Positions 6,746 to 63,331 of a stretch of DNA of 64,000 nucleotides are shown piece by piece. A program made the translations under genes and the position numbers. The number at the start of each line of letters is the position of its first letter. The first letter of the stretch is position 1. Under the pieces are notes generated by a model. That model saw only the letters and a program-made list of their open reading frames with translations. It searched no databases and was not told the origin of the DNA. The stretch is from a virus. The stretch is taken from positions 34,707 through 98,706 of the IMG/VR virus record IMGVR_UViG_3300008110_000030. One strand, written 5' to 3'.

Positions 6746-6793
6746 GGCACCGTTAAGGGCCTAATTTGATTCTTACTTTAAAAGGAGATTATC

Positions 6794-10609: not shown

Positions 10610-10684
10610 GTATTAATTTACTAAGCATTTAATTTATCGCTCTACTACCGTTAAATAATAATGACGGTAATCGGAGAGCGAGCA

Positions 10685-39384: not shown

Positions 39385-39924
39385 ATGGCAAAATATCTTT
39401 CAACAAAAACATACGGTAACGACCGCGGCTTATCATGCTGTTTTAGACAGTGGCGTAGTACACATAGTCACTGCTCATTACTGCACGGATATTCAATTGG
39501 TATTAAACTAGTTTTTGAATCTGAAACACTGGATACTCGAAATTGGGTCATGGACTTTGGCGGACTCAAAGCATTTAAAGAGTGGGCTGACCACATGTTT
39601 GATCATACTTTGGTAATTGCTGAAGATGATCCCCATCGTGCCATGTTTGAAAAGATGGCTAGTTTGGGCTTACAAGATAAAGGTGGAGTGTGTGACGTCC
39701 GTATCGTAGAAGGTGTAGGATGTGAAAAATTCAGCGAATTAGCTTTTAAAACCATGCAAGAAATTTTGGAAACTTTCCAAAGAGGCGAAGGTTGGGAATT
39801 AAAAGACCAAACAGGCAAAACAGTAAAACTGTTTGGTGCTCGATACCCAGTTGGTTCTGATGTTAAATTACGGTCAGTAGAAGTTTTTGAACATGCGGGC
39901 AATTCAGCAGTTTACGAAGGTTAA
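39385..39924 (+). CDS. queD: 6-carboxy-5,6,7,8-tetrahydropterin synthase QueD / PTPS family
   Basis: 179 aa; CSLLHGY (CxxxHGH-type zinc motif) and PTPS-like core HxxDFGGLK. Confidence 0.7.
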   Translation: MAKYLSTKTYGNDRGLSCCFRQWRSTHSHCSLLHGYSIGIKLVFESETLDTRNWVMDFGGLKAFKEWADHMFDHTLVIAEDDPHRAMFEKMASLGLQDKGGVCDVRIVEGVGCEKFSELAFKTMQEILETFQRGEGWELKDQTGKTVKLFGARYPVGSDVKLRSVEVFEHAGNSAVYEG

Positions 39925-40077
39925 GAAACTTTGGCGTCTTTGGGCTAAGGCTTTGGGTGAAAAATCCGGCAGTTCGGATGAAGAAGCAGATAAAATCGCT
40001 TGCATTCGGACTGCAATTGTGTTAACATATATTATAACAAACTTTTTTATTGTAGCAGGCGTTATAAGGCATTGGTA

Positions 40078-40485
40078 ATGACTACTGGATTTACATGTTC
40101 AACATTTGATTTGTTTCACGCAGGTCACGTAATGATGCTCAAAGAAGCCAAAGAGCATTGTGATTATCTTCTTGTTGGGCTACAAACAGATCCAACCATA
40201 GATAGACCACACAAAAACAAGCCTATCCAAACAGTATTTGAACGTTTTATACAATTAAAGGCTTGTAAGTATGTTGACGAAGTTGTAGTGTATGCTACTG
40301 AAAAAGAACTTCGAGACATATTGCTTTCTTATCCTATTAGTATTAGAATACTGGGAGAAGAATATGCTGGTAAAGAATTTACTGGCGATGATATTGATAT
40401 GGACTTTTATTTCAATCGACGAGAGCACAGTTTTTCAACAACCGAACTAAGACAGCGTGTAGTAGACGCAGAAAGTAAAAAATGA
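40078..40485 (+). CDS. cytidylyltransferase-like nucleotidyltransferase (HxGH family, TagD-like size)
   Basis: GFTCSTFDLFHAGHVMML = (T/H)xGH signature; ATG 40078 chosen (ORF-track 40000). Confidence 0.6.
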   Translation: MTTGFTCSTFDLFHAGHVMMLKEAKEHCDYLLVGLQTDPTIDRPHKNKPIQTVFERFIQLKACKYVDEVVVYATEKELRDILLSYPISIRILGEEYAGKEFTGDDIDMDFYFNRREHSFSTTELRQRVVDAESKK

Positions 40486-41498
40486 TTAAGCGCATAGGCT
40501 TTGCATGTAAGTGGATCGACACTCCTGATCAAGTAGATGGTATCAGGGCTACTGATGATTGTAAGCAATACAACACTGGTGCTACCACCATAACTTGGTT
40601 AAATAAACAAACAAAAGAAGTTGCTGAACAAAAGCTATGGGATCTAATGGTCCAGAACTTAGAAGCGACTCGTTTGCTTGTTGAAAGGGTAGGTAAACAA
40701 CATGAAAGACTCCGCATGGTTCGCCTTAGTAGCGACATTCTTCCTGCTTATACCCAGTCTGATTGGAGTTACTTTTGGAGCAAGCCTGACGTTGTCCAGT
40801 ATCTTGAACGCAATTTTATCCTTATTGGGGATAGTGCTCGTGCAAGCAATACCCGTGTTTCTATGCATCCTGGTCAGTTTACTGTTCTTGCTAGTGATAA
40901 TCCGGACATTGTTCGGCGAAGCATAGAGGAGTTTGAATATCATGCAGATATGGTCAGGTACATGGGCTACGGTAAACAATTTCAGGACTTTAAGATCAAC
41001 GTCCACATCTCGGGTAGAGCCGGTCCCGAAGGTATTCGAGCTGCCTACAAAAAACTTACCCCCGAAGCAAGAAATTGCATCACCATTGAAAATGAGGAAA
41101 TGAGCCATGGTTTATCTACTTGCTTGTCTCTTGGTGACCTTCTTCCTATTGTACTTGATATCCATCATCATTGGATTAAAGAAGGTGAATACATCATGCC
41201 TAATGACCCAAAAGTACAGCAAGTACTTGACAGTTGGCGTGGTCTTCGCCCTACTATGCACTATAGCGTTAGCAGGGAAGACGTGTTGGTTGGTCATTGC
41301 ACACTGACTAAACCTGATCACAAGACTCTGTTAGAGTCTGGACATAAAAAACAAAAACTTAGAGCACACAGTAATTTTTATTGGAATAAAGAAGTTAATG
41401 ATTGGGCTTTGACTTTTAATGACCAATTTGATATTATGTGCGAAAGCAAGGCTAAGAACCTAGCCAGCAAGGCATTGTTTGACTACAGCAATACTTGA
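40482..41498 (+). CDS. uvdE: UV damage endonuclease UvdE/UvsE-like
   Basis: 338 aa; collinear with B. subtilis UvsE blocks (RIGFAC, LRMVRLSSDILP, MHPGQFTVLAS, INVHISG, IENEEM, IVLDIHHH, MHYSVS). Confidence 0.65.
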   Translation: MIKRIGFACKWIDTPDQVDGIRATDDCKQYNTGATTITWLNKQTKEVAEQKLWDLMVQNLEATRLLVERVGKQHERLRMVRLSSDILPAYTQSDWSYFWSKPDVVQYLERNFILIGDSARASNTRVSMHPGQFTVLASDNPDIVRRSIEEFEYHADMVRYMGYGKQFQDFKINVHISGRAGPEGIRAAYKKLTPEARNCITIENEEMSHGLSTCLSLGDLLPIVLDIHHHWIKEGEYIMPNDPKVQQVLDSWRGLRPTMHYSVSREDVLVGHCTLTKPDHKTLLESGHKKQKLRAHSNFYWNKEVNDWALTFNDQFDIMCESKAKNLASKALFDYSNT

Positions 41499-41568: not shown

Positions 41569-41859
41569 TTACGCAGTCTTCTTAGGCGCCCTAGGCTTAG
41601 TACCAACTTTCTTTACAGCTGGTGTCTTTGCTGGGGCTTTTGGTTTTGGAGCTGCCTTAGCTTTTGCAGGTGCCTTTGCAGGTGCCTTTGCAGGTGCCTT
41701 TTTAGTTGCTGGCTTTTTCTTAGCTGGTGCAATTGATTCAACAACTGCTTGACTAGCTTGCTCAACAACTGGTGTTGTCGCAGGTGCTTCCACTTTATAT
41801 GGAACTTCTGCTGTTACCGGCTTCTCTGAACCAAATAATGATTTTAGAAATTTAATCAT
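41569..41859 (-). CDS. histone H1-like Lys/Ala/Pro-rich basic protein
   Basis: 96 aa; C-terminal half KKKPATKKAPAKAPAKAPAKAKAAPKPKAPAKTPAVKK; AAGGAGAT SD. Confidence 0.6.
   Translation of the reverse strand: MIKFLKSLFGSEKPVTAEVPYKVEAPATTPVVEQASQAVVESIAPAKKKPATKKAPAKAPAKAPAKAKAAPKPKAPAKTPAVKKVGTKPRAPKKTA
41676..41711. repeat. 3 x 12-nt perfect tandem repeat GCAGGTGCCTTT (encodes KAPA repeats on minus strand)
   Basis: direct tandem repeats read from sequence. Confidence 0.85.
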
Positions 41860-42003: not shown

Positions 42004-42729
42004 ATGTTAAAAATTACAAATCTCTCCGTCAATTACGACGTTATTCCAATTTTGGAAGATATCAATTTAGAAATCAATGAAGGCGAAATTCACGCCATTT
42101 TAGGACCAACAGGTTCAGGCAAAAGTTCCTTAGTCAGTGTTATTGCTGGCAAATCAGATCTTAGCGTTGTCAAAGGTAAAATAAACTTTAAGAGAAAATC
42201 TTTAAACAGTTTAGATCCAAATGAAAGAAGTAAATTAGGAATTTTTACAACATTTCAGGAGCCACCTGAAATTAATGGCATTACAAATTTAAATTTAACT
42301 AGACAAATTTTGAATGCTCGAAATGATAAAAGATCATCAACTGACGTTATTAATGATTATAAAAATTTAATAAAACAATTTGATCTAGGAAGCGAATGGT
42401 CTAATCGAGATTACAACGTAGGAGCAAGCGCAGGCGAAAAAAAGAAAAATGAAATTGTACAGTTATACATGCTCAATCCATCTCTTACAATTTTAGACGA
42501 TATTGACAGTGGCTTAGACTTAGACACACTAACTGAAGTATTTAAAAGTTTAAAATCTTTCCTCTCACAAAAAGGAAAGGCAGCTATCATTATCACACAT
42601 CAACCAACGATCCTTGAAGCAATAGAGCCCACACATGTGCATGTTATCATAGATGGAAGAATCGTGGAGTCAGGTGATAAGAAAATAATTAAAAGGATCA
42701 TTTCAAATGGCTATCGAGAGTTTTCTTAA
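42004..42729 (+). CDS. sufC: Fe-S cluster assembly ATPase SufC
   Basis: 241 aa; Walker A GPTGSGKSS, ABC signature-like SAGEKKK, Walker B ILDDIDSGLD; typical SufC length. Confidence 0.85.
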   Translation: MLKITNLSVNYDVIPILEDINLEINEGEIHAILGPTGSGKSSLVSVIAGKSDLSVVKGKINFKRKSLNSLDPNERSKLGIFTTFQEPPEINGITNLNLTRQILNARNDKRSSTDVINDYKNLIKQFDLGSEWSNRDYNVGASAGEKKKNEIVQLYMLNPSLTILDDIDSGLDLDTLTEVFKSLKSFLSQKGKAAIIITHQPTILEAIEPTHVHVIIDGRIVESGDKKIIKRIISNGYREFS

Positions 42730-43531
42730 AGTTGATTCACAAGACCCAGATTGGTCAAACAGTCCTACACAGTACTTTGGTAAAAAATTTAAGGTCATTG
42801 ATGCAAATTGCTTAATGATAAAAGAAAATACTGATGACTTGATGGTTCTACGTATGAATCCAACTGAATCAGATTTGTTATGCAAAAATTTACAAGTGCT
42901 TGGAAGAGACAGTAGTAGGCTAGACTTATTCATTCTATGCGATGGATCTAAAAATACTCAACAGGTTTTTATTTACAATGTAACTGCTGAACCAAATTCA
43001 ATTATTAATATTGGGATTTTTGTTAAAGACGGGAAACTTAATAAGCATATATTTGAATGTGAGCTATACGAAAACTCTGTTATTAATATCTTTGGTCTAG
43101 CAGAAAATGGGGTTGGCGGTAGCAGTGAGATTATAAGCAAAGTTTATCACGCTGGTCCTTGTGCAGAGAGCAACACGTTTGTAAACAGTATTGCTGGAAA
43201 AAATAGTCGAACTGTCTTTCAGGGTATTGTTAAAATTGAAGAAGACATGATAGACAGCGTGTCCAGTGTAACTAATACCAGTATTGTCTGTGACGAAACT
43301 TCACAAGCATTTAGTACTCCACAAATGGTTATTGACTGTGGACAAGTACGGGCGTATCATAGTTGTGAAGTTACTACAATTGACGAACATAGTCTATGGT
43401 ATTTAGAAAGCAAGGGCATTGATAAAGTCAGTGCTGAGAACTTGTTAAAAACCCTGCATCAAGATAGTGTGTTGGAACTTATTGAATATCAAGACATTAA
43501 AGATGAACTCAAAGATTTTTTCCAAAGTTAA
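42707..43531 (+). CDS. sufD: SufD/SufB-family protein, short form (274 aa)
   Basis: C-terminal HAGPCAE...VFQGIVKI...AYHSCEVTTIDEHSLWYLESKGI matches SufB/D beta-helix core; overlaps sufC. Confidence 0.6.
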   Translation: MAIESFLKVDSQDPDWSNSPTQYFGKKFKVIDANCLMIKENTDDLMVLRMNPTESDLLCKNLQVLGRDSSRLDLFILCDGSKNTQQVFIYNVTAEPNSIINIGIFVKDGKLNKHIFECELYENSVINIFGLAENGVGGSSEIISKVYHAGPCAESNTFVNSIAGKNSRTVFQGIVKIEEDMIDSVSSVTNTSIVCDETSQAFSTPQMVIDCGQVRAYHSCEVTTIDEHSLWYLESKGIDKVSAENLLKTLHQDSVLELIEYQDIKDELKDFFQS

Positions 43532-44651
43532 AAGCGATTTTACTTTACCAGACAAAACATACTTAAACAGTGCATCACAAACTATAATTCCTAATCAGGT
43601 AAAGGATTCCTACCTTGATATTTGTAATAAAATTGATGCAAGGGATGAGTATGAGTTTATTAGACAAAAAGTAAAATTATTAATTAATTCTAAAAAAGAC
43701 AACGAAATAATTTTTACTCAAGGAAACAATCATGGCATAAACATGATTGCCAAGAGCATTTGTCACAAATGGCATTCAAATGATTGTGTAATTGTTCCTG
43801 AAAGTGAACACCATGCTAATTTTCTCATTTGGCAATACATGTCCATTGAATATGGTTTTAGATTTGAAACCGTAAATGTTATCAAAGATGGCAGTATGGA
43901 TCTTGGTCATCTTGAAGATTTACTCAATGGCTGTGATGGTAAGATATTGTTCAGTATGAGCCATATCTCTAACAGTATTGGTTATGTACAACCTGTTAAA
44001 AGTATATTTGATAAAGTCAAAGAATATGACGGGATAACTTTGCTAGATGCAAGTTTAAGCATTGGCAGAGAAACAATAGACGTGCAAGATTTCAATATTG
44101 ATTTTTTAACATTTACTGGACATAAATTTTATGGTCCAACGGGTGTTGGCATGTTATACGGGAAACAAAAGTATTTAGACAAGTTAGAACCTACTATATT
44201 AGGTGATAGCAATAGTACACTACTCCCTTGGAAATTAGAAATTGGCAAACCCAACATTGCAGGGGTAGTAATGTTAGGTTCAGCAATTGACTGGTTCACT
44301 TCATATGATTTAGAAAGTTTTAAAGTTCATGACAAACTTATGAATGCAAACTTTCAAATGATGTTGAATGACCTTGACTTCATAGAAATATTCCACCCAG
44401 GTTACTATAAAGGTGGCTTAATTGGCTTCAACGTACATGGCCACCATCCTGCTTATGTAGGAGAATTTTTACTTAACGAAGGAATTGTATTAAAATATGG
44501 TCATTTAAATGCAAGACCAATTGTAGAAGAAAAATTCCCAAATGGAATACTTAGATTGAGTTGGGCTTGCTACAATACTAAAGATGATGTTGAACATTTA
44601 AAACAGGGTCTTGTAAAATTCTACGATAAATACAATTCTAAAAGGACATAA
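43503..44651 (+). CDS. sufS: SufS/CsdA-like class V aminotransferase (cysteine desulfurase family)
   Basis: PLP-lysine motif FTGHKFYGPTGVGMLYG; C-terminal RLSWACYNTKDDVE like SufS RASLAMYNTHEEVD; ATG 43503 chosen; GHLNA where group II enzymes have GHHCA. Confidence 0.75.
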   Translation: MNSKIFSKVKSDFTLPDKTYLNSASQTIIPNQVKDSYLDICNKIDARDEYEFIRQKVKLLINSKKDNEIIFTQGNNHGINMIAKSICHKWHSNDCVIVPESEHHANFLIWQYMSIEYGFRFETVNVIKDGSMDLGHLEDLLNGCDGKILFSMSHISNSIGYVQPVKSIFDKVKEYDGITLLDASLSIGRETIDVQDFNIDFLTFTGHKFYGPTGVGMLYGKQKYLDKLEPTILGDSNSTLLPWKLEIGKPNIAGVVMLGSAIDWFTSYDLESFKVHDKLMNANFQMMLNDLDFIEIFHPGYYKGGLIGFNVHGHHPAYVGEFLLNEGIVLKYGHLNARPIVEEKFPNGILRLSWACYNTKDDVEHLKQGLVKFYDKYNSKRT

Positions 44652-44654
44652 AAT

Positions 44655-45041
44655 ATGGCATATTCAGACAAAGTAATCGATCATTACGAGAATCCTCGCA
44701 ACGTTGGTAGCTTTGACAAGAACGATACCGATGTTGGCACTGGCATGGTTGGTGCACCTGCTTGCGGTGATGTAATGAAACTACAGATAAAGGTAGACAA
44801 TGATACAGGTATTATTACAGATGCAAAATTTAAAACGTATGGCTGCGGATCGGCTATCGCGAGCTCGAGTCTCGTTACAGAATGGCTCAAAGGAAAAACT
44901 CTCGACGAAGCAGGAACAATCAAAAACTCCGAAATCGCCACAGAACTAGCATTACCCCCAGTAAAGATACACTGTAGTATTCTAGCAGAAGATGCTATTA
45001 AGGCGGCTGTAAATGATTACCGTAACCGACACAGCACGTAA
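44655..45041 (+). CDS. iscU: Fe-S cluster scaffold IscU
   Basis: 128 aa, nearly identical in long blocks to E. coli IscU (VIDHYENPRNVGSF, GAPACGDVMKLQIKV, KTYGCGSAIASSSLVTEW, LPPVKIHCSILAEDAIKAA). Confidence 0.9.
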   Translation: MAYSDKVIDHYENPRNVGSFDKNDTDVGTGMVGAPACGDVMKLQIKVDNDTGIITDAKFKTYGCGSAIASSSLVTEWLKGKTLDEAGTIKNSEIATELALPPVKIHCSILAEDAIKAAVNDYRNRHST

Positions 45042-45339
45042 GAGAATTAAACAGAATTTAGAAAAACGCGGCAAAGGCGTGGGTATTCGCATAGGTGTAA
45101 AAACCACAGGCTGTAGTGGATTGGCCTATACTATCGAATATGTGGATGAATACACTGCTGAACCTGGAGTCACTAATTTTGGTCAACCAGAATTTATTGT
45201 GCTGGTCGATGCCAAGAGTTTGGCTTATCTAAATGGTTTAACAATGGATTGGGTTCGCAACGGACTTAATGAAGGATTTGATTTTATTAATCCCAATGAG
45301 CGTGACCGCTGTGGATGTGGTGAAAGTTTTAGAGTTTAA
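45013..45339 (+). CDS. iscA: Fe-S cluster insertion protein IscA/SufA (HesB family)
   Basis: 108 aa; GCSGLAY...VDAKSLAYLNG...CGCGESF matches IscA. Confidence 0.85.
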   Translation: MITVTDTARKRIKQNLEKRGKGVGIRIGVKTTGCSGLAYTIEYVDEYTAEPGVTNFGQPEFIVLVDAKSLAYLNGLTMDWVRNGLNEGFDFINPNERDRCGCGESFRV

Positions 45340-45623
45340 ATCTTACCAATTGGCAATGTACTGCTAACTGGCATATCCCAAATTTTTCTTTTAGTAATGC
45401 CCATTCGTTGGGCAAATTTTTTGACGTCACATTCTCCGCAAACATGAAAATATTTGTTGCTGAGTCTTTTGGGGTCTATCTTAGCATGATCCCTTGTAAA
45501 ATCCCTGTCACAATTGTCACATCGAAAAACATTAATTGTTTTTGTTCTAGTATAATGATGTTCTTTGCCTAATTTACTGCTTCGAACATAATTAGAAATT
45601 TCTTTAAAGGATCGTATGAACAT
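45336..45623 (-). CDS. putative small zinc-ribbon protein
   Basis: 95 aa minus-strand ORF in otherwise non-coding gap; CDNCD...CGECD pairs. Confidence 0.4.
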   Translation of the reverse strand: MFIRSFKEISNYVRSSKLGKEHHYTRTKTINVFRCDNCDRDFTRDHAKIDPKRLSNKYFHVCGECDVKKFAQRMGITKRKIWDMPVSSTLPIGKI

Positions 45624-45704
45624 GCCATTATTTACATTAAGTTTATAAAACTATAAGGTAAATAAAGTGGACAGTTGGTATATCACCCAAATTTGGAGTT
45701 AATA

Positions 45705-48700
45705 ATGGCAAGAAAAGACGTTAATATTGGTTTAACAGGTAACGATGGAACAGGTGACAGCATACGTGATGCGTTTTCCAAAGTTAATGCAAATTTCCAA
45801 GAACTTTACGCTAGTCAAGGTCTAGAGGCCGGACTAACATTTGATAACTTAGTTGACGTTATCAAACCACTAAGACCTAACACAGTTTTAGGCTTAGACA
45901 GTTTAGGAAAAACGATTGTTAGTAGAGATTTAGAAGCGGCTATTGGTATCAGTATTGATACAGCTACTGATCCATCTAAAATAATCTTTAGTATTGCTAA
46001 CGTTCAAATTCGACAAGACCCAACTCCTACGCTGTCAAACGTATTAGACGGAAGTGGTTTTAAATTAAGTTTTATTGGTGATCCTGAAAATGACCAAGAT
46101 GCTGTTACTAGAAAATGGGTTTATCAGAATTTCTTAAACAGAGACAATATTGACAAGTTGGGCACCTTTGATCTTGCTGCCGGCAGTGTCATGCGTCAGA
46201 ACTTCAAAATTAGTCCTACTCCAGATAACGGCAACGTTAATGCTGGTACAAAAATTATTAGCGTTGTTGGATCTGACGGTGTTACTCCAAAGAATGATGT
46301 TTTCTTAAAATTCCAAGCAACGCACCCTGCTCATGCAACACGTAAAGAATATGTAGATACTAAACTTTCTTTACAGGGAACTAACACACTAGATCCAGCA
46401 ACTGGCTTTGTAAACAAGGGCATGGGCGTGATGACTGGTCCATTAATATTAAATGACCACCCTGGTGACTATGTTGGTATCAATCGTCTTCCAGACGGAA
46501 CACTATTTGTACAAGAAGATTACAGAGCAGTTACTAAAGGATATGTAGATTCTAAGTCATATTCTAGTAGTGGTAATTTGTATGTTAGTACAAAAGGTAA
46601 TGATGATATTTGGGATTTTGACAACGATCGTCCAAATCCAATCTATGGTTATCCAGAAGAAGAAATTGGTCGCAGTTGGAGTAAAGCATTTAAATCATTG
46701 AATGCCGCATGTCGCTATGCAACTCGAATTATAGACACTGTTGAATTACAAAATACACCATACCAAGTTACGCCACAACAAATTACTCGTTGGGCTCCGC
46801 CATTTACAACTCCAATTACAAGCCCAAGAACTCGTGTGCGTGTAAGTTTACAAAATCATGGATTTCAAGATGGAGATTACGTTTTAGTTAGTGGAGCTAT
46901 CTTAGGATCACTGGACACAAGAAATTTAAATGGTATCCATAGAGTTAATGCTTTAGATGTTAATAACTTTGAATTAAATTTAAAATCATTAGTAACATGG
47001 CCAAATCCAGAAGTTGCTCCTGGCGGAACTATTAGCATTTCATTAGCTAACAAAAAGGATGGTCCTTACAGTATAACTTCTAAAGTCGATTTTGGATTTA
47101 GAGGATTCTTTGTACCAAAACCTGAAATTACTATTATGGTTGAGTCAGGTGTATATTTTGAAGAAGCTCCAATTTTTGTCCCACCTAACTGTGCTATTAA
47201 GGGTGACGAATTTAGACGTACATTAGTTAAACCAAAACCAGGTCCAGTTGACCCTGTTAAATCTCAACAGCTCAAGTTTGTTCGAGGCGACCGAAGCCAA
47301 AGTGCTACCTTTTGGTATAACACTCACTACTACCACCAACTTGCTAGATCAGTTGGAACTACTAACGTAGTTGGTAGTACAAAATTAGAAATTAAAAATA
47401 GTCCTTATAGACCAAAGAGTGGTATGAGGTTTATTGTAGGAACCGTTGGTGGAATACCTAATGTCTACAGAGTTGGGCGTGAAGTTAATATTGTTTACAA
47501 AGACCCAAATCCAGATTTAAACATTGCTCCAGGAACATATATTATGGACATTGTTGACGACAACGGTGATCCAAAACCACTAGCAACTGGTATCCCAGAT
47601 TCATCAACAATTGAATTCTTGTTAGACAACGAGCACTGCGATGCATTATTGGTTGCTGATGCATTCCAATTGCGTAACCTAACACTTATTGGATTCAAAG
47701 GCTTTGCTATGTCTTTTGATCCAAATAGACAAATCAAAACACGTTCTCCATATGCACAAGTTGGCGCTGTATTTGCTGGGGAAGGCGGTGGTGGTCAATT
47801 GGTTGACGGTATGTCTGGTAACCAAGTTTGCTACGTTCAAGACACTAGCTATACAGATCCGTTCACTGGTACACAAGGTTCTAGTGGTCTCAAAATGACT
47901 GTTACTGGTCTTGTGCGTACTCCTGAAACTCCAAACACATTTTTCTTAGCTAAGAAAAAGTATGTCATTATTGATTCAACAACTCCAGATGCTAATGGAA
48001 CTGCTACATTAACATTGAGTACTACTACTCCAATTGAACTTGATGATACTTATTTGCCAGCAGGATTTATTCCAAACGGTTCTCAGATTTTAATTGAAAC
48101 TGCTGGTAATAGATCTATGTTGTCTAATGACTTTACCATGATCAACGATTTAGGTTATGGTCTAGTTTGTGAAAACAACGGTGTTGCAGAAGCAGTTAGT
48201 CAATTTACATACTATTGCCGTGCCAGCTATTTGTCTAGATCAGGCGGTCAAATTCGTTCTGTAACAGGCTCAAGTTGTTATGGTATTGTTGGTTTACAAT
48301 CTGAAGGTAGCGATCCTAACGAAGCTATTCAAATTGGTAGAGTTAAAACTGACATTGGTAACATCATGCAAGTGTATATTGATGATCCAGATGCAGATGG
48401 TAACCAAGGTGCTGTAAATTTAGTAATGGGCGGCTTGGCTAGCAAGCCTATAAGAAATGCCACATTCAAACTGACCAAACATGAAGTTATTATTAAAAAT
48501 ATTGCTAGAGCAAGATTGCCAGGTGGGACATTAACTAATGGTCCTCTAGTAGTAACTACATATTATCCTCACCCTTTCTCAACTGGAGAAAGTGTACAAA
48601 TGACCAGTGTTCGAGGATTGCAATTGCCTGCAATTCCTCCAAGTACTACTCCTAGAACAACTGATGTTGACGGCAGAGTTTACACAATTACCTCTATCAG

Positions 48701-51700
48701 TGACCATACCTTTACGTTAGATGGTTCTGAGAGTACTAACTATATCAATGATTTAGGAACTTATAATTTTGCTGACTTGCCGGCTCGCGCTATATCCAAT
48801 TTAGTAATTGGGGCACAAGACGTTGTATTCTCAATTAAAGGTGATCCAAGCCCATCTAATATTACAGGTAGAGCAAGGTTTGATGGAATTCCTGGTGAAA
48901 ACCAAGCTGGTCAAAACGTACTAAAACTTCAACGTCTACAACGTCCAGCTGTTGTTGGAATGAAAACAACTATACCTGGCGGTGTACTGACCTACACTGT
49001 AACTGGTGTTACTGAAAAAACGGTCACATTCAAACCTTCTCCAAGACCAACTCCTACTGGTGATAATGATAATAAAATTGGCGCACAGACCATTTATATC
49101 TATACCACTACAGACATTACAACAGGTGCTATTAGTGGTACTACTCTTACTGCTACTAATCTAGATCAAAATAATGTTGGTCAATTGGTCACAGGCGACA
49201 CTGTAGCTGCCAACACTTATATTATTGAAGTTACCAGTCCAACAACTGCAACAGTTTCAATTAGTCAAAGTGTTACTAATAGAACTTTAGAATTAAGTTG
49301 GGTGCCTAAGATAGGTTGGAGTTTCCAACATTTAGACACCAACATGGGTCTACAGTTAACTTATACAAGATATACAATTACTGATACCCCAGTTTATGAT
49401 GCAGTGTCAAACAGATGGGCTGTGACATTAGATACTCCTCTAACAGTTAACATGCAAAATCAAGAGGCAACTGGTCAGACTACCATCGTTGATGGCATAT
49501 GGGACGTTACTTTAAATTATGATTTAGAAGTGAGTATCGTTAATAGTGTGACTCCTGTGTCATTTACATTTGTTGATTCATATTGGGTTACAAGTATTGA
49601 TCCATCGCTGACTAACCCAATACCTACAGTCACTGATGCATATAATAGGACTCGTGCTCGTAAAATAAACTTGTATCAACAAAAGACAATTAGTGTAAGT
49701 CAAATTTTAAACAGACCTGCTATTATTAACAGTTCCGCCTTAAGATTTTCAGCTTCAAATTATGATCCAAGTATATACCGTATTTTAGGTAAGACATCTG
49801 ATGGCGGCATTACTCAAGACAAATACGCTGTTACTACAACAATAAATCCATTAAGTGGTCTCAACACCAATGCTGTACAAAAAGTATCAGATAACAAAAT
49901 TTGGATACAATCTGAAGTTATTGATTATTTGGCCACAATTTATCCTAACTTCCAATATAACATCAACACATGCTTCCGTGACGTTGGGTACATTATTGAT
50001 GCCGTTCTTTATGACTTGACCTATGGTGGTAACGTAAGAAGTCGTGCCGCTGGTATTAGTTATTATCAGCAAGGTAATCCAAGTGCGGCTCTTGTATTGA
50101 GTCAGCAAAAAATAGAAACTATTGATGCAATTAATTTTGCCACCACTGCGGCAATTACTGCACTGAATCAATACAGTGGTGCAACTATACCACAACTACA
50201 ACTACCATATCGTGGAAGCAATTTAAATGGTGTTGCACAAATACAAGCAAATAAATTATTTGTACAAGATGAAGTTATTGCATTTTTAGCACAAACATAC
50301 CCATCTTTACAATTTAATCAAACTACTTGCCGTAGAGACGTTGGTTTAATTCTTGATGCTGTTGCCTATGACTTAGAATATGGTGGTAACGTAGCAACTA
50401 GAACGGCTGCTCTAGCATATTATGACGGTTCAACAAGTTCACAATATGTGTTGTCTAATCAAAAAACACAAACCATTGCTGCCGTTAATAGAGCATCAAC
50501 TGTTGTTCAACAGATTGTTTTAGAAACAACTGTGACTGCAACAGCTGGAAATACATCAACGCAAAACACTGCTGGAACTCCTGGAGTTGCTGGGGTCGAC
50601 AACGTACGAGTTCAAGAATTAATGAACATTATAACCAATGTTCTACAGAACGGTACTTCAGTTGCTCCTGTTAGAAATTTAGGTATTAGAAGAAGTTACC
50701 AAGATCCTTTAAGTATAGATTACGTTGCACAAGATATTGACAGTGGCATTGTAGCTGAAGCTGGAGCGGCAACTGCTTTACAAGCCTTAATGGATCAAAT
50801 TGTAGCAATAATTCAATTTGGTGCTACTGGCCCTCATGTTATTGTTCAACCACAAGTGTTGGACACACTACAAGCAATTGACTTCCCACCAACTGCAACA
50901 TCACTACAATATGGTGCAGTATTAACTGGTATAGGAATTCCTAGAGCAGGAGTAGGTGGCGTAACTGAAGATACATTTATTAGAACTGTAACGCAGTTGT
51001 TTGACGAAAATCAAAATACAATTGGCTATAGAGCTAGAATTAGTGCTCCAGTCACACAAGCGATTCCTGCTGGTACAGAGATTACTATTACTGGTCCAGG
51101 CAGTGACTTCTTATTTGACCTAAACACCCCACTAGACCTTAGACACTTAGCTGGAGATGTAATTGGTATTACTACTACATTCTCAACAGTACGTGCAACT
51201 GGACATGATTTCTTAAACGTTGGTGCAGGTGGTTATGATGATTCTAACTATCCTAACAACGTTTATGGTCAACCAGTTAATACACCATCTGATAGTGCAA
51301 TTGCCACAGAAGTTGGAACAGGTCGTGTGTTCCACGTGTCCACTGATCAAAATGGTAACTTTAGAGTAGGTAGTTTCTTTAACGTTAACCAAGGCGACGG
51401 CTCTGTTAGTATTAGTGCTAAGATTGGTCTAAGTGCTGTTACAAGTTTAAGTTTCTTAACTGGTGCAACTGTTAACCAATTCTCAACTGATTCTAAATTA
51501 GACGACAACAGTGATAACATTGTTTCAACACAGAAAGCAATGAAGACCTACATCAATAACTTGATTGATGGTCGCTTTACAATTGATAACACTGATACTC
51601 CACAACGAGGTCTATTAAGACTTGACGGTGAGAGCATTATGGTTGGCGATTTAGACATTGGTTTAAACAGTGTTGAACGTATAGTAAACAGTCCAAACAA

Positions 51701-54236
51701 TGACGGTGCTGTCAATAGAAAATATGTAGATAATGTATTTGCAGGCGGAACTATTAATTATGATGGTTCTTATGAAATTGAAACAACTGGCAGTAGAACA
51801 AATGTATTAGCATTTACTATGATAACCGACAACACTTCAGTTGGCGGTGTTCCAAATAATAAGGGCGGAATTGATCTTAACAATAATAAGATAGTAAGTC
51901 TGAAAGCTCCAACTGAGTTGACAGATGCTGCCAATAGAGCTTATGTTGATCAGACCATTGCCACAGGCGGTGTAAGAACAGGTTGGACTGGATTCACACT
52001 TTCTAATACTACTATAAGAAATACTGTATCTAGTATCAGTATGGTAAACAACGGTGGCGGTTATCTTGTTCCACCAGTGGTTGTAATTTACTCTACTAGT
52101 GGTACTGGTGCTGCCGCAAGAGCAGTTCTTACTGCTGGAAGTGGTGCAAGAAGTGTTAACAACATTATTGTTGACAGTGGCGGGTATGGTTACACTGAAG
52201 CCCCAATGATTATTATTGGCGGCAGTGTGTCAAATGTAAACGTAAACAGTTCTGGATCAGGGTATAGCAGTGCCCCAACATTGACCTTTAGTGCTCCTCC
52301 AACTGGTGGTATTAGAGCTACTGGTTATGCTGTTATGCAAGGAAGCGGATCAAATCAAATTATTAGTAGCATTGTAATTACTAATGCAGGTGCGGGCTAT
52401 ACACTTGCACCAACTATTGCGCAATCTGGCGGTGGTTCACCTACTGTGACTGCAATTATTACTGCTGTTTTACAACCAGGATCAGGCGCAACAGCTACCG
52501 CAGGTATTACTGCTACTCTAAGAAATATTGATTTAAATGGTAACAAGGTAACTGGCTCTGCTGATCCAACACAAAATACAGATTTAGTAACTTTAAATTA
52601 TTTTAATACTAAAAACTTTATTGGCGAAATTGCTGACGTAACTATAACCAATGTTCCTGCAAGTGGTGATTTATTAGTATTCACAGGTACTGTACCAGCA
52701 GGAAGTAAAGGTGCTATGGTCAACGTGGCAGTTGATTCAAGTAGTGATATTTCGTTTGTAAGAAGTGCTAATACAATTGCTGTTAATATTAAAGACAATG
52801 CTATTATTGATAGCAACATTGCTCCTAATGCCGCAATTCAACAAACTAAATTATTGTTGAGTCGAGCAAATTCAGTTACTGAAGGCGCTGTACCTGGTGT
52901 TGGTGATTTTGGTATATCGTCATTTAATGCTACTGAATTTATCAGTGATAATGGTTTAATTAAACTACGTCAGTCAGAAAGTAAAAATACTGGTGTTCGT
53001 TTAGATAGAATGCAACAGATCACTAATTATCGAATACTAGGAAGATACAATGTTACTGAAGGTGAAACTTCAGTTGGCCCTATTACTGAAGTCCCGGTAA
53101 CAGATTTAAAACAATTACTAGGATTGAGTGCCGCAACTGTTCAAGTTCTTATTAGTGATGACATTTTAGGTGGTAAACAAGTTGATAGTGGCAATCCACT
53201 AAATCCATTACTTGCTACCAACTGGAATGGTAGTGCATCGTTTGGTGCGCTATTAAGACGTGGCGGATCAATGATTGGTAAAATAGTCATGACTGATGCT
53301 GGGGGATTGCCAGCAGGTGATGCAAATATTACTCCAATTATTGGTGTTGGCGCCGGCCTCACTGACAAGTTAGACATTGGTACAAGCTCATTAAGATTTA
53401 GAAACGTATTCTCTAAGAATCACTATGGTGACGTATTTGAAGGTGCAACATTTGGTAGTGCTAGTGCCCCGACAACACAAGGTAGTGGAGCAACATTTAA
53501 TGGAACTGCTACATTTGCTGGAAGTTCTGGAGCATTACAATTTGCGTTGGTTGCAGGTGGAGATATTGCTCTTAGAAATGGCGCAAATAATGTAAACTTT
53601 AATGGAAGTCAACAAGTTACTGTCAGTGTGCTAGCAGAAAGTGGTACTGTAAACAACAGTCTTGTAAGAAGAACTAGTGATGGTCAAATTAATGCAAGTC
53701 AGTTTAATGGTCCGTTAAATGGGTTGGCTACAAATGCAACTAACTTGCGTTTAGGAACTACTGATTATCCAGCAAGTGACAGTGCAAGTAGCACTTCAGT
53801 TCCGTTACGTATTAACGGAGTAATAAAGGCTACTACTTTTGAAGGTAAAGCAACCAGTGCCAACTATGCTGACTTAGCTGAAAATTATCAAGCTGACTTT
53901 GCATATGAGCCTGGTACTGTACTTGAATTTGGTGGCGCTCACGAAGTTACTGTTGCACAAGATGAAACTAGAAAGGTAGCAGGGGTTGTATCAACAAGAC
54001 CAGCACATTTAATGAATACTGAACTACAAGGTGAAAATGTTGTAGCACTTGCACTACAAGGGCGTGTTCCATGTAAAGTACGTGGTAAGATTAGTAAAGG
54101 CGACCTAATGGTTAGTGCCGGAGGTGGTTATGCTCGTCCAACACACGATCCAAAAATTGGAACAATTATTGGAAAAGCGTTAGAAGACTTTGATGGTGTT
54201 GAAGGTGTCATTGAAGTGGTTGTTGGAAGATTGTAA
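45705..54236 (+). CDS. giant virion structural protein, tail-fibre-like (2843 aa)
   Basis: GGAG SD before ATG 45705; N-terminal NDGTGDSIRDAFSKVNANFQEL motif shared with next gene; Ser/Thr/Gly/Asn-rich beta-repetitive composition; internal repeats. Confidence 0.8.
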   Translation: MARKDVNIGLTGNDGTGDSIRDAFSKVNANFQELYASQGLEAGLTFDNLVDVIKPLRPNTVLGLDSLGKTIVSRDLEAAIGISIDTATDPSKIIFSIANVQIRQDPTPTLSNVLDGSGFKLSFIGDPENDQDAVTRKWVYQNFLNRDNIDKLGTFDLAAGSVMRQNFKISPTPDNGNVNAGTKIISVVGSDGVTPKNDVFLKFQATHPAHATRKEYVDTKLSLQGTNTLDPATGFVNKGMGVMTGPLILNDHPGDYVGINRLPDGTLFVQEDYRAVTKGYVDSKSYSSSGNLYVSTKGNDDIWDFDNDRPNPIYGYPEEEIGRSWSKAFKSLNAACRYATRIIDTVELQNTPYQVTPQQITRWAPPFTTPITSPRTRVRVSLQNHGFQDGDYVLVSGAILGSLDTRNLNGIHRVNALDVNNFELNLKSLVTWPNPEVAPGGTISISLANKKDGPYSITSKVDFGFRGFFVPKPEITIMVESGVYFEEAPIFVPPNCAIKGDEFRRTLVKPKPGPVDPVKSQQLKFVRGDRSQSATFWYNTHYYHQLARSVGTTNVVGSTKLEIKNSPYRPKSGMRFIVGTVGGIPNVYRVGREVNIVYKDPNPDLNIAPGTYIMDIVDDNGDPKPLATGIPDSSTIEFLLDNEHCDALLVADAFQLRNLTLIGFKGFAMSFDPNRQIKTRSPYAQVGAVFAGEGGGGQLVDGMSGNQVCYVQDTSYTDPFTGTQGSSGLKMTVTGLVRTPETPNTFFLAKKKYVIIDSTTPDANGTATLTLSTTTPIELDDTYLPAGFIPNGSQILIETAGNRSMLSNDFTMINDLGYGLVCENNGVAEAVSQFTYYCRASYLSRSGGQIRSVTGSSCYGIVGLQSEGSDPNEAIQIGRVKTDIGNIMQVYIDDPDADGNQGAVNLVMGGLASKPIRNATFKLTKHEVIIKNIARARLPGGTLTNGPLVVTTYYPHPFSTGESVQMTSVRGLQLPAIPPSTTPRTTDVDGRVYTITSISDHTFTLDGSESTNYINDLGTYNFADLPARAISNLVIGAQDVVFSIKGDPSPSNITGRARFDGIPGENQAGQNVLKLQRLQRPAVVGMKTTIPGGVLTYTVTGVTEKTVTFKPSPRPTPTGDNDNKIGAQTIYIYTTTDITTGAISGTTLTATNLDQNNVGQLVTGDTVAANTYIIEVTSPTTATVSISQSVTNRTLELSWVPKIGWSFQHLDTNMGLQLTYTRYTITDTPVYDAVSNRWAVTLDTPLTVNMQNQEATGQTTIVDGIWDVTLNYDLEVSIVNSVTPVSFTFVDSYWVTSIDPSLTNPIPTVTDAYNRTRARKINLYQQKTISVSQILNRPAIINSSALRFSASNYDPSIYRILGKTSDGGITQDKYAVTTTINPLSGLNTNAVQKVSDNKIWIQSEVIDYLATIYPNFQYNINTCFRDVGYIIDAVLYDLTYGGNVRSRAAGISYYQQGNPSAALVLSQQKIETIDAINFATTAAITALNQYSGATIPQLQLPYRGSNLNGVAQIQANKLFVQDEVIAFLAQTYPSLQFNQTTCRRDVGLILDAVAYDLEYGGNVATRTAALAYYDGSTSSQYVLSNQKTQTIAAVNRASTVVQQIVLETTVTATAGNTSTQNTAGTPGVAGVDNVRVQELMNIITNVLQNGTSVAPVRNLGIRRSYQDPLSIDYVAQDIDSGIVAEAGAATALQALMDQIVAIIQFGATGPHVIVQPQVLDTLQAIDFPPTATSLQYGAVLTGIGIPRAGVGGVTEDTFIRTVTQLFDENQNTIGYRARISAPVTQAIPAGTEITITGPGSDFLFDLNTPLDLRHLAGDVIGITTTFSTVRATGHDFLNVGAGGYDDSNYPNNVYGQPVNTPSDSAIATEVGTGRVFHVSTDQNGNFRVGSFFNVNQGDGSVSISAKIGLSAVTSLSFLTGATVNQFSTDSKLDDNSDNIVSTQKAMKTYINNLIDGRFTIDNTDTPQRGLLRLDGESIMVGDLDIGLNSVERIVNSPNNDGAVNRKYVDNVFAGGTINYDGSYEIETTGSRTNVLAFTMITDNTSVGGVPNNKGGIDLNNNKIVSLKAPTELTDAANRAYVDQTIATGGVRTGWTGFTLSNTTIRNTVSSISMVNNGGGYLVPPVVVIYSTSGTGAAARAVLTAGSGARSVNNIIVDSGGYGYTEAPMIIIGGSVSNVNVNSSGSGYSSAPTLTFSAPPTGGIRATGYAVMQGSGSNQIISSIVITNAGAGYTLAPTIAQSGGGSPTVTAIITAVLQPGSGATATAGITATLRNIDLNGNKVTGSADPTQNTDLVTLNYFNTKNFIGEIADVTITNVPASGDLLVFTGTVPAGSKGAMVNVAVDSSSDISFVRSANTIAVNIKDNAIIDSNIAPNAAIQQTKLLLSRANSVTEGAVPGVGDFGISSFNATEFISDNGLIKLRQSESKNTGVRLDRMQQITNYRILGRYNVTEGETSVGPITEVPVTDLKQLLGLSAATVQVLISDDILGGKQVDSGNPLNPLLATNWNGSASFGALLRRGGSMIGKIVMTDAGGLPAGDANITPIIGVGAGLTDKLDIGTSSLRFRNVFSKNHYGDVFEGATFGSASAPTTQGSGATFNGTATFAGSSGALQFALVAGGDIALRNGANNVNFNGSQQVTVSVLAESGTVNNSLVRRTSDGQINASQFNGPLNGLATNATNLRLGTTDYPASDSASSTSVPLRINGVIKATTFEGKATSANYADLAENYQADFAYEPGTVLEFGGAHEVTVAQDETRKVAGVVSTRPAHLMNTELQGENVVALALQGRVPCKVRGKISKGDLMVSAGGGYARPTHDPKIGTIIGKALEDFDGVEGVIEVVVGRL
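49891..50610 (+). repeat. in-frame tandem duplication of a 360-nt (120-aa) module inside the giant gene
   Basis: copies start 49891 and 50251: ...EVIDYLATIYPNFQYNINTCFRDVGYIIDAVLYDLTYGGNV... vs ...EVIAFLAQTYPSLQFNQTTCRRDVGLILDAVAYDLEYGGNV... Confidence 0.8.
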
Positions 54237-54273
54237 GATATCCTAAAATAAATAAGATAAACAGGAACGAAAA

Positions 54274-57200
54274 ATGAGCATTCAATACATAAACATTGGT
54301 TCTAACGCAAATGATGGTACTGGCGATGATTTACGCACTGCGTTTTTAAAAGTAAATGATAATTTTCAATTACTTGCAACTATAGGTGGAGAGACTAACG
54401 TAGGCGCTAATTTAGGTGGTGGCAGTGGGCAGGTTTACGCTGGCAAAACTAATGAGACTCTTAACTTTAGAACAATTGCTGGTGATGTCAGTTCAGGTAT
54501 AACTGTAAATCAATCTGGCAATGTTATTACAATCGCTAGTAATTTTAGTGTTCCTGCATCTATTACTACATTAATATCCGACGACAACAGTGGACAATTT
54601 ACTACTACCAGTCCTGGAGCAACGTTTAGATTCAATGGAACTGGCGGTGTGACTACCAGTTTGAATGCTAATATATTAACTATTGATGGTCAATTTACTC
54701 TGGTACAAGATACACTACCTTTATTAGGTGGTAATTTAGATTTGAACGGAAGCAATGTTGTTGGTTTAGGTAACATTAGTATTATTGGTGATATTACCTC
54801 TGATTACTTAACTGTTGGAAGAATAGTAACTCCTGGAGTATTTCCAGCATCTGCTACTGTTAATGGTTCATTAACCGTACGTGGATCTTCAAGTTTACAG
54901 GCAGTTACTGCAACTACTATTCTTACTAACAATATTATAACTGCTCCAGGATTTACAGCAACAAGTGGAGCTTTCACTGGTAACCTTACTGGTAATAGTA
55001 CTGGCACACATTACGGCAATGTGGCTTTGAAAGTTGTTGATCCATTAGATCCTAATTATCCTGAAATAGTCATAGTTGATTCTGACACACAAACAATAAC
55101 TGGTACGCATTTTGGTACATTCAGTGGGGGAATGACTGGGTCACTAATTACTGGTGGGCTAGCATTGGATGGTAATGCTATTACTGGTCAAGGTAGAATA
55201 GAAATAACAGGATCACTAATTCCTACTAGCACTATGCCGTTTAAAGTGATTGGTAGATTCCATGGTGGCGATCAAGCTGATGGAGTTGCACCTGTATTAA
55301 GCGATGGTCCCGTTGGCGCAACTTTTTCAATGGAGCAACAACCAAATGGGTTTTCTGAACCAATTCGTTTACAGTCGTACAGTAAAAATGGAAGTAATTC
55401 GTTACCGCTAGGTCCAGGTATTAGATTTGAATCAATTAATGAAATAGATGTAACAGATCCGTTAACATACGATCCTTTAAATCCACCAACACAGCCAGAA
55501 TATGTACTACATGGACATATTGGTGTGCTATCTTATAGTGACGGTGTTGAGGGATCAAATCCTGAACATAGTTCATTTGTTGCTAGAGTTAGACATGGCG
55601 ATGCTGTAGGTGAGATGCGAGATGTAATTATTGCACGTGGTAATGATAGAGTAAGTATTACTGGTATTGACATTGATATTGCTAAAATTGGTACAAGAAT
55701 TATAGAAATTAGTCCTGGGGTCACTGGCCCAAGACCTTATGATTTAATTATTACTAATGAATCTTCAGGAAACTATATCAACTTTTATGGTGATTATGAT
55801 CCTCTCTTAGCTGAAGGCGCCGCAACTGGTCCTGGTTTTACTGGTTATAGTTTTCCAAAGGTGATTGGTGCTCCTGGTGAGGTACTGACTGTTCAATTAG
55901 GAACCAACCTACTGACATGGGCCACCCCAGGTGGCGGTGGAGGTGGAGGTGGTACAACTTTATTAAATTTAACTGACGTTCCAGACAGCTACGCTACCCA
56001 TGCTGGTAAACTTTTACGAGTAAAATCAACAAGTGATGGTATTGAATTTACAAACAGTTTTGATGCCACAGTAACTGGTAGTTTAATTGGTAATGCTGAC
56101 ACTGCAACTGCATTAGAAACTGCTAGAACAATTAACGGGTTTACGTTTGACGGTACTCAAAATATTACTATTGATACTAGACAAATTGAAGAATTAAAAC
56201 AACTGGCATCAAATGCCAGTCTAGTAGGCAGCAGTGGTTCTGTAGTAACAACAACTACTATTACTATTGCAGAATCTAATCTAACCATTAATGCTGGTGA
56301 GCCCTCTACTAACCAAGGTGCTCGTAAATTCCGTGTAGGAATGATAGTTAAAGGAATAGATATCCTCAATGCTGTTATTACTAATATTGCCTTAACTGGT
56401 GGTTCAACCCCTGTTCCTAATAACGACAGAACAGTAACTCTAACAATAACATTTGACAGCCAAGTAGTGAATGCACAAACTGGTCTTAGTATCACTGGCG
56501 AAGTTACAAATCAATGGTTTAATGATACAAAAGTTCGTGAAACCATTAGTGTTAGTCCTGGCAGTGCTCTTTCATATAACGAAACATTAGGTTTATTTAC
56601 ATTGTCAGATGCAGTGTCAAGTGTTAATGACACATTGGTAAGAAGAAATAGCACTGGTGAAGTATTTCTTAAAACTGCCTATGTTACTACACTAACAAAG
56701 AATAGTGCTGATAGTGTAATAACTGTAACAAGCCCAGTTTCTACTAATTCTGAGATAAACTCAACAGCAAACATTACCACAACAGGAACTGTTGTTGCTG
56801 GATTTATAACCTTAAATGGAGTAGGAAATCAAACCATAGCATCTAGTGCTGGTACTAGCATTATTTTACAACCAGGAACAAGTGTTGATGTAAGTGGCAA
56901 AAAGATAACGAATCTTTCAATTGCGGCTCCAACCGCAGACAGTGATGCTTCAACTAAAAAATATGTTGACGATGAAATTACAGGTCTATTTAATGAGACG
57001 TTTCAAGAATTACCAGTGTCTGGAGATACTGGTGGAACATTAAATGTACAACGTAGTGCAATTTTCACAGTCGCTGGTAGTTCAAATATTGCTACGGCAA
57101 CAACTGGTACTGGTGTTCAGATCAATTTAAAAAGTACAATTTCTGGAATTAGCATTAGTGGAAACTTACCAGTTACAGGAAACGTAACAAGTTCGGGTGG

Positions 57201-57693: not shown

Positions 57694-57696
57694 ACT

Positions 57697-62815: not shown

Positions 62816-63331
62816 ATGCACAGTAATCAATATGGACAAGTTTTTAGGAATGAGCAGGAAGTTCTAGACTTAATGCTACAAAATCCTAATTTAGATATTT
62901 CCAAAATAAACTTTGAAAGCCTCGATGTCGTTAATCTGTTTAACGAGTCTGCAAATCGCTGTGGCATAAATGTAAACATACAGGCTGGAAAAGAGATTAC
63001 TATTGATTTAATCGAGTTTGATAAACAAAATCAAACTGAGTGGTTTATGCCAGAAGAATACTGTCCAAATCTTTTTGAAATGCTGTTTGCCAAGTGTGAT
63101 AACGATGAGAAAAGAGCAAGGGTAGATAAAGAGCTTGAACTATATATTAAGCATGGCATGGTAGAACTGCTACATTTCATGAAATACCTAGTAGATACAT
63201 TAAGGTCTAATAATGTAGTTTGGGGTGTTGGTAGAGGTTCTAGTGTAGCAAGTTATATACTATATTTGATAGGTGTTCATAAGGTTGACAGCATTAAATA
63301 TAATTTAGATATTAATGAATTTCTAAAATAA
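62816..63331 (+). CDS. hypothetical protein
   Basis: 171 aa ORF starting at predicted TSS. Confidence 0.5.
   Translation: MHSNQYGQVFRNEQEVLDLMLQNPNLDISKINFESLDVVNLFNESANRCGINVNIQAGKEITIDLIEFDKQNQTEWFMPEEYCPNLFEMLFAKCDNDEKRARVDKELELYIKHGMVELLHFMKYLVDTLRSNNVVWGVGRGSSVASYILYLIGVHKVDSIKYNLDINEFLK

Follow-up and report, generated by a model that had tools for sequence, protein, structure and literature searches.

Naturally inactive cysteine desulfurases are rare, and the case described in the reviews consulted is the IscS of Archaeoglobus fulgidus, a type I protein beside IscU in which the lysine that binds pyridoxal 5'-phosphate (PLP) is missing (Asp199) and the loop cysteine, which may ligate a cluster, is kept; despite its inactivity as a desulfurase, it is thought to have a non-catalytic part in Fe-S assembly (PMC8918507). 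[quoted passage not shown] The class-II (type II) cysteine desulfurases share the consensus RXGHHCA (PMC8300815), and a β-hairpin lying beside the PLP lysine and the catalytic loop is a further type II feature, which may mediate the interaction with SufE (PMC8918507). In this regard, the R56A/K and R359A/K variants of Escherichia coli SufS are severely impaired in passing the persulfide on to SufE (PMC11507941). Our full-text literature search retrieved nothing on SufS proteins devoid of the cysteine or on phage SUF pseudoenzymes. In this study, we have analysed a gene of the virus record IMGVR_UViG_3300008110_000030, contained in a stretch of 64,000 nucleotides (positions 34,707 to 98,706 of the record; hereafter, the window), which encodes a SufS-derived protein without the catalytic cysteine; gene and product are referred to as sufS* and SufS*. 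Comparison with its relatives suggests that SufS* is probably a pseudoenzyme, no longer a desulfurase, that has been kept for binding or for structure.

The open reading frame (ORF) of sufS* comprises 382 codons plus the stop and begins with MNSKIF, the start methionine being shared with its homologues (Table 1). Its product matches the class-V aminotransferase family of Pfam (Aminotran_5, PF00266) at 258 bits, and its best NCBIfam match is the SufS model TIGR01979, at 267.3 bits, below the curated cutoff of 475.1. The AlphaFold2 (AF2) model has a pLDDT of 93.5 and a pTM of 0.92, and Foldseek places it at a template modelling (TM) score of 0.92 to both Bacillus subtilis and E. coli SufS, at 28-30% identity, so that family score, model and structural search all indicate the class-V aminotransferase (fold type I) architecture. 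Among 5.8 billion proteins searched, about 35 close relatives were retrieved at 40-93% identity, followed by a sharp fall to about 35% for ordinary SufS; for the loci, a scan of IMG/VR, which yielded seven, was complemented by a single metagenome scan. Among GenBank phages, a megablast with the operon gave no match and no cultured relative was identified, while the protein search returned only canonical SufS or host contamination, at no more than 31.7% identity. The relatives comprise long forms of 401-414 aa, scoring 407-441 bits against TIGR01979, and short forms of 334-389 aa, the window protein among them, scoring 184-270 bits.

A preliminary description of the window had claimed, from the letters alone, that the persulfide-forming cysteine of SufS aligns to an asparagine in this protein, the PLP-lysine motif and the C-terminal SufS signature being retained. 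The motifs quoted there are all present: TGHKFYGPTG contains K208, which aligns with K224 of B. subtilis SufS, and RLSWACYNTKDDVE contains C356. In a phmmer search against solved structures, the segment VRAGHHCAQPL of B. subtilis SufS pairs with LKYGHLNARPI of SufS* with no gap in the stretch, and the same register is found in two multiple alignments that include E. coli, B. subtilis and metagenomic SufS sequences. Since the three agree, the position of the persulfide cysteine (C361 of B. subtilis SufS, by our own residue count) is that of Asn336 in the window protein; the GHHCA register assumed in the preliminary description holds, and no cysteine stands at the catalytic-loop position. The AAT codon is two substitutions away from TGT or TGC, and a single base error does not, therefore, explain the asparagine. 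Contig L025 is 100% identical to SufS* across residues 86-382, and protein P0001, 93% identical and encoded on a 245-kb contig, reads KYGHLNARP too.

The catalytic cysteine is not the only loss. Where canonical SufS and the long forms have the class-II consensus arginine (E. coli R359), the window protein has K331; the glutamine that contacts PLP-O3' (DAAQS) has become leucine (DASLS), the phosphate contacts GTT read GNN, and the phosphate-contacting threonine of EAGTPN is a lysine (EIGKPN). Two segments have also been removed, namely 13 residues with the ANIHRGIH loop (H55/R56 in E. coli) and 10 residues of the type-II β-hairpin. K208, H103/H104, N157, D182, H207 and R351 are kept, the last aligning with the substrate-binding Arg376 of B. 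subtilis SufS. Taking together the defects of the R56 and R359 variants and the placement of the hairpin, the parts lost from SufS* are the ones that form the persulfide and pass it on. As read from the alignments, the loss in SufS* is a multi-site syndrome that goes beyond the single cysteine.

A different cysteine might have taken over, as the preliminary description had suggested in pointing to the one in SWAC, 20 residues downstream. This residue is C356, and it lies on the strand bearing the substrate-binding Arg351, which would suit a substitute nucleophile in a SufS* that is still a persulfide-forming desulfurase. However, C356 is found in 24 of the 33 sequences of the phage clade, among them long forms with the catalytic cysteine, and in 8 of 15 Cys-less members its position is occupied by H, L, I or V; a comparison of alignment columns found no cysteine column conserved across the Cys-less clade. 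Canonical SufS has L, F or M in this column, and such hydrophobic residues suggest that the position, on a strand, is buried. Being ancestral and unconserved among the Cys-less relatives, C356 is no substitute nucleophile, and the proposal of its use is left without support; that SufS* remains a desulfurase by this route is very improbable.

The full set of eight scored sites (H-D-Q-K-T-R-C-R) is present in 246 of the 268 SufS-family proteins retrieved, and all full-length Cys-less proteins among these 268 fall in the phage clade. In a neighbour-joining tree with 100 bootstraps, the short forms, including the window protein, make up a single clade (bootstrap 99) nested within that of the phage SufS proteins (bootstrap 100 and 99). 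SufS* is also the sole class-V aminotransferase detected by a hidden Markov model (HMM) scan of the 64-kb window. It is not a paralog inside a cell; its ancestor is a phage-borne SufS. All eight sites are kept by the long forms, whose loop reads VRSGFLCAQP. All short forms lack the cysteine (N, D or S instead) and the class-II arginine, and the PLP-contacting glutamine is missing in every one except the intermediate P0025, as the phosphate-contacting threonine is replaced in every one except P0010. The PLP lysine itself is missing in 7 of 16 Cys-less relatives and has been lost at least twice, on separate branches (P0009/10, and the group P0027/29/32-34/P0121), and P0122, with 334 aa, has lost all eight sites together with 45 N-terminal residues. 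As these members are nevertheless conserved, PLP catalysis cannot be what the Cys-less clade has in common.

With so many catalytic residues gone, and with the short forms more distant from canonical SufS than the long forms (p-distances of 0.67-0.76 and 0.59-0.63, respectively), sufS* might be taken for a decaying pseudogene or for an assembly or sequencing artefact. Selection was estimated by the pairwise Nei-Gojobori method. For most pairs the synonymous divergence (dS) has reached saturation, and the window with locus L001 is the only clean comparison; in this pair, the ratio of nonsynonymous to synonymous divergence (dN/dS) is 0.049 for sufS* (dS 0.82), 0.058 for sufC and 0.048 for sufD, with dS ranging from 0.3 to 0.8. 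Strong purifying selection acts on sufC, sufD and sufS*. Moreover, more than 15 diverged lineages, sampled independently, have undisrupted ORFs, 75 columns are invariant among 15 short forms that go down to 40% identity to the window protein, and the fold is predicted with confidence. An artefact is further opposed by the identical second contig, L025, and by the two changes that separate the AAT codon from one for cysteine. Both pseudogene and sequencing error were rejected on these data of selection and recurrence, and we consider them extremely improbable.

The two proteins encoded upstream of SufS* have been eroded as well. In the three long-form loci compared, SufC has intact Walker A (GPNGAGKS), ABC (ATP-binding cassette) signature (ASGGE), Walker B (ILDEIDSGLD, with the glutamate of E. 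coli E171) and H-loop (ITHQ) motifs, and SufD keeps the histidine corresponding to E. coli H360. The window has an intact Walker A (GPTGSGKSS), the H-loop ITHQ and the SufD histidine (H218), whereas its signature reads ASAGE (SGG to SAG) and its Walker B ILDDIDSGLD (Glu to Asp). In the other short forms Walker A is mostly kept, the signature and the Walker B glutamate are lost in most cases and the H-loop histidine is lost; the SufD histidine is Q or I in five of eight short-form loci. Within the short-form clade, the window lineage shows the least degradation, and sufC remains conserved in the sister phages despite its motif losses. As far as these motifs can tell, SufC and SufD degrade in parallel with SufS in the short-form clade.

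Across 35 related loci, a SufS that bears the cysteine is always accompanied by sufB, and by sufE wherever downstream sequence exists. Every short-form locus, on the other hand, is without sufB, sufE and sufT, the absence of sufB upstream of sufC having been judged in those short-form loci that have upstream sequence. Long-form loci are arranged in the order UvdE, a small minus-strand ORF, sufB, sometimes grx, sufC, sufD, sufS, sufE, sufT, an A-type carrier and giant ORFs; sufT is present in all of them but L023, and the only exception to the order is L035, which ends inside sufS. In the window the genes sufC, short sufD, sufS*, iscU and iscA form a tight, overlapping row, sufD sharing 23 nt with sufC and 29 nt with sufS*. 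This arrangement is also found in L001, L007, L008, L012, L014, L026 and L027, and sufC-sufD-sufS* occurs without iscU-iscA in L005/6, L010 and L019. L104 carries a variant in which the most degraded relative (P0122; L104 8001-10615) is followed, with the same synteny, by an Fe-superoxide dismutase gene, iscA, iscU and a second iscA. Neither sufB, sufE nor another class-V aminotransferase was detected in the HMM scan of the 64-kb window, whose sole match to the sufB model was the SufD paralog, at 21.8 bits. A phage sufB reported in an amoC-phage preprint was considered and set aside, being host-like, recently acquired by a different group of phages and unrelated to the present lineage.

The scaffold and carrier genes that follow sufS* are of a different kind. 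The three Cys, the Asp and the His ligands of the phage IscU are all intact, as is LPPVK, the HscA-binding motif of ISC-type scaffolds. Against the SufU model the protein scores 67 bits, under the cutoff of 92.5; the scaffold beside sufS* is of the IscU type. The phage IscA has its three cysteines intact and, being an ISC-type carrier with only 26-32% identity to the A-type carrier that the long-form SUF operons encode, points to a cassette that has been swapped in. Metagenomes hold hundreds of clusters 92-100% identical to the phage IscU, and in an unrelated 330-kb phage contig a 94%-identical iscU-iscA pair (L107 8001-8685) occurs by itself, with suf genes absent from its vicinity, among genes for ribonucleotide reductase, Hc1, Hsp70, Hsp20 and ribosomal protein S21. 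The existence of this lone pair indicates that the cassette needs no adjacent phage desulfurase, and it is presumably fed by a host IscS-type enzyme. Between the window and L001, IscU is 87% and IscA 65% identical in amino acids, and the proportion of synonymous differences (pS) of iscU is about 0.87, against 0.25-0.50 for the flanking sufC, sufD and sufS*; the iscU-iscA cassette looks mobile.

We propose that the ancestor of these loci would have been a complete sufB-C-D-S-E-T-A operon in a lineage of large T4-like freshwater phages. One branch would have lost sufB, sufE and sufT, with an ISC-type iscU-iscA pair usually replacing sufE-sufT-sufA, and SufS would then have lost the catalytic cysteine, the class-II arginine, the H55/R56 loop and most of the β-hairpin. 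The resulting SufS* should be unable to perform the persulfide-forming desulfurase reaction, in which case the sulfur for the phage IscU would have to come from a host desulfurase. Its most likely role would be that of a binding or structural subunit acting together with SufC and SufD, which are translationally coupled to it and degraded in a similar way.

The pocket of SufS* is where this proposal has to be weighed most carefully. The window subclade consists of eight sequences, the window protein and its seven closest relatives, at 65-93% identity to it; 13 of 15 pocket positions are invariant in it, against a background of 47.6% (binomial P=0.002), in a test that is biased by the burial of pocket residues. 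The invariant positions include the derived N76, L185, K249, K331 and N336, and PLP or a related ligand is probably still accommodated in the remodelled pocket. All eight members keep the PLP lysine, the His-His pair, the Asn, the Asp, the His-Lys pair and the substrate-carboxylate Arg. SufS* might, then, still be a PLP enzyme whose chemistry dispenses with an enzyme cysteine, as a selenocysteine lyase, as a cysteine-sulfinate desulfinase or through a C-DES-like β-elimination of cystine or cysteine, which would provide free cysteine persulfide or sulfide for IscU; the adjoining iscU and iscA would be in keeping with this. The C364A variant of E. coli CsdB reportedly retains selenocysteine-lyase activity. 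A precedent for PLP chemistry without the cysteine is offered by Synechocystis C-DES (PMC8300815). However, the glutamine at PLP-O3', the phosphate-binding threonines and the class-II arginine have been replaced, two segments lining the active site are deleted, sister lineages with the same neighbourhood have dispensed with the PLP lysine or, in P0122, with every scored site and are still conserved, and SufC and SufD degrade in parallel. On balance, such an activity appears rather unlikely. Thus, of the two further possibilities contemplated in the preliminary description, a non-catalytic protein has gained ground through the several active-site losses, the disappearance of sufB and sufE and the lysine losses in sister lineages, and alternative chemistry is narrowed to the window subclade, with its retained residues and unusually invariant pocket.

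Since Cys-less members without the lysine, and one without any scored site, remain conserved in the same row of genes, the simplest reading is a binding or structural role. Some considerations count against it. That role is reached by elimination, and the retained residues, together with the invariant pocket positions, fit a functional ligand or PLP site and possibly other catalysis. The window covers 64 kb of a genome of about 245 kb, and a working desulfurase, sufB or sufE could therefore lie elsewhere. In addition, as L005/6 and L010 are without iscU-iscA at the site, a link of SufS* to IscU is not general.

These last two lineages, which keep the trio without adjacent iscU-iscA, bear on another possibility, in which the dead SufC, SufD and SufS would mimic the SUF system of the host. 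By binding host SufB, SufE or SufS, or by forming mixed dimers, the trio would block, shut down or redirect host Fe-S assembly toward the phage IscU-IscA and Fe-S enzymes. Selection on a trio devoid of catalytic residues, and of sufB or sufE, would agree with such mimicry, and the elements lost from SufS, which act across the dimer interface and in the hand-over to SufE, would suit a non-productive binder. The LPPVK motif of IscU and a proteobacterial-like DnaK encoded in the window hint, on the contrary, at a host of the ISC type, and we regard mimicry of host SUF as improbable.

Table 1. Features of the sufC-iscA gene row in the 64-kb window (positions of the window).
Feature	Position	Strand	Basis
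sufC	42004..42729	+	TIGR01978 253 bits (cutoff 212.8); alignment to E. coli SufC
short sufD (274 aa)	42707..43531	+	Pfam SUFBD_core 95 bits; TIGR01981 99.8 bits (cutoff 222)
sufS* (382-aa SufS-derived protein, without catalytic Cys)	43503..44651	+	PF00266, TIGR01979, AF2, Foldseek, dN/dS
Junction of 13-residue deletion, ANIHRGIH loop gone (E. coli H55/R56, α3-α4 loop)	43632..43643	+	alignment columns 53-65
Lys208, counterpart of PLP-binding Lys (B. subtilis K224)	44124..44126	+	alignments
Junction of 10-residue deletion in type-II β-hairpin	44205..44216	+	alignments
EIGKPN replacing EAGTPN, 3' of hairpin junction	44238-44255	+	alignments
Catalytic-loop equivalent KYGHLNA, residues 331-337	44493..44513	+	alignments; class II consensus RXGHHCA
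Asn336 codon AAT, at Cys position	44508-44510	+	alignments
Cys356 of SWAC	44568..44570	+	ancestral; column comparison
iscU	44655..45041	+	TIGR01999 224.8 bits (cutoff 192.4); alignment
iscA (ISC-type A-type carrier)	45013..45339	+	TIGR00049 100.6 bits (cutoff 58.8); IscA model 132.9 bits

The surroundings of this row are those of a large T4-like phage. Upstream genes in the window include RIIA, ClpP, a PTPS/QueD-like gene (PTPS, 6-pyruvoyl-tetrahydropterin synthase) and UvdE, and the 93%-identical relative lies on a contig of 245,550 bp classed as viral in IMG/VR. Just upstream of the suf genes (39385-41498, +) are the PTPS/QueD-like gene, a cytidylyltransferase-like gene and that of the UvdE UV endonuclease; the first of them may point to a 7-deazaguanine or pterin pathway with a radical-SAM step that would depend on Fe-S clusters. 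A Lys/Ala/Pro-rich ORF of 96 aa (AKKKPATKKAPAKAPAKAPAKAKAAPKPK) with histone-H1-like composition and no Pfam match occupies 41569-41859 on the minus strand, between the UvdE gene and the suf genes, and a small minus-strand ORF is located there in most related loci. On the other side, 45336-45623 (-) holds a 95-aa ORF with a zinc-ribbon-like CDNC…CGEC pattern and no Pfam match, which is conserved directly behind the Fe-S genes in many related loci of the long as well as the short form. Beyond it (45675-61938, +) lie three giant ORFs of 2853, 1139 and 1413 aa, without a Pfam match in the window, which are probably baseplate or fibre proteins, their homologues giving faint T4_gp9_10_N matches.

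Further away, a heme oxygenase gene (PF01126) is followed directly by that of a ferredoxin-dependent bilin reductase (PF05996) at 7606-8827 (+), a pair typical of cyanophage-like auxiliary genes, which could release iron from heme and depends on [2Fe-2S] ferredoxin. At 4856-7228 (+), the gene of a small heat-shock protein, Hsp20, comes after that of a full-length DnaK/Hsp70 with 65-68% identity to the DnaK of proteobacteria, and a DnaK-Hsp20 pair is also present in the unrelated jumbo phage of L107. A CsgF-like protein and one with a curlin-associated repeat (10661-11230 and 12583-13557, +) are curli-type parts unexpected in a phage. An ORF of 171 aa near the window end (62816-63331, +), whose match to bacterial DNA polymerase III alpha is confined to the NTPase-domain part (PF07733), may represent a gene fragment or a split gene.

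What stands out in this phage lineage is that the SufC-SufD-SufS trio has decayed in parallel and yet been retained. The lineage provides a natural series that starts with a complete SUF operon, passes through the state seen in the window, where SufS is without the cysteine but still has the PLP lysine, and ends in a form with no active-site residue left. The decay of all three proteins under strong purifying selection implies either that a SUF function can be separated from catalysis or that dead copies manipulate the Fe-S metabolism of the host. There is also a practical consequence, as public metagenome annotation labels the relatives of SufS* 'cysteine desulfurase/selenocysteine lyase', with the result that they would be miscounted as sulfur-mobilising auxiliary metabolic genes.

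Among known systems, the type II SufS enzymes (E. coli SufS/CsdB and B. subtilis SufS) are the ones from which SufS* clearly descends, by way of a phage-borne SufS in a full SUF operon, and it shares with them the fold, the PLP lysine, the His-His pair, the Asp, the substrate Arg and the short length of the type-II catalytic loop. It differs from them in the change of Cys to Asn and of the RXGHHCA Arg to Lys, in the replaced Gln and Thr contacts to PLP, in the deleted H55/R56 loop and truncated β-hairpin, in its TIGR01979 score below the cutoff and in having neither a SufE or SufU partner nor sufB beside it in the 64-kb window. The partner SufC recalls the degenerate, non-hydrolytic nucleotide-binding sites of ABC proteins such as TAP1 and CFTR NBD1, with the catalytic glutamate of Walker B replaced, an altered signature and Walker A kept; SufC, however, is a soluble ATPase of homodimer type, not one half of an asymmetric transporter, and its decay is far deeper in the sister phages. 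With C-DES, SufS* shares by sequence a PLP lysine and the lack of an active-site cysteine, but C-DES is an active lyase, whereas SufS* has further PLP and substrate contacts replaced, sister proteins without the PLP lysine, and nearest relatives that are SufS proteins. The nearest precedent described is the naturally inactive IscS of A. fulgidus. As in that protein, a desulfurase fold that would be inactive has been retained next to IscU, with the opposite pattern of lysine and cysteine: the window protein is of type II, has kept the lysine and lost the cysteine, and is encoded by a virus together with degraded SufC and SufD.

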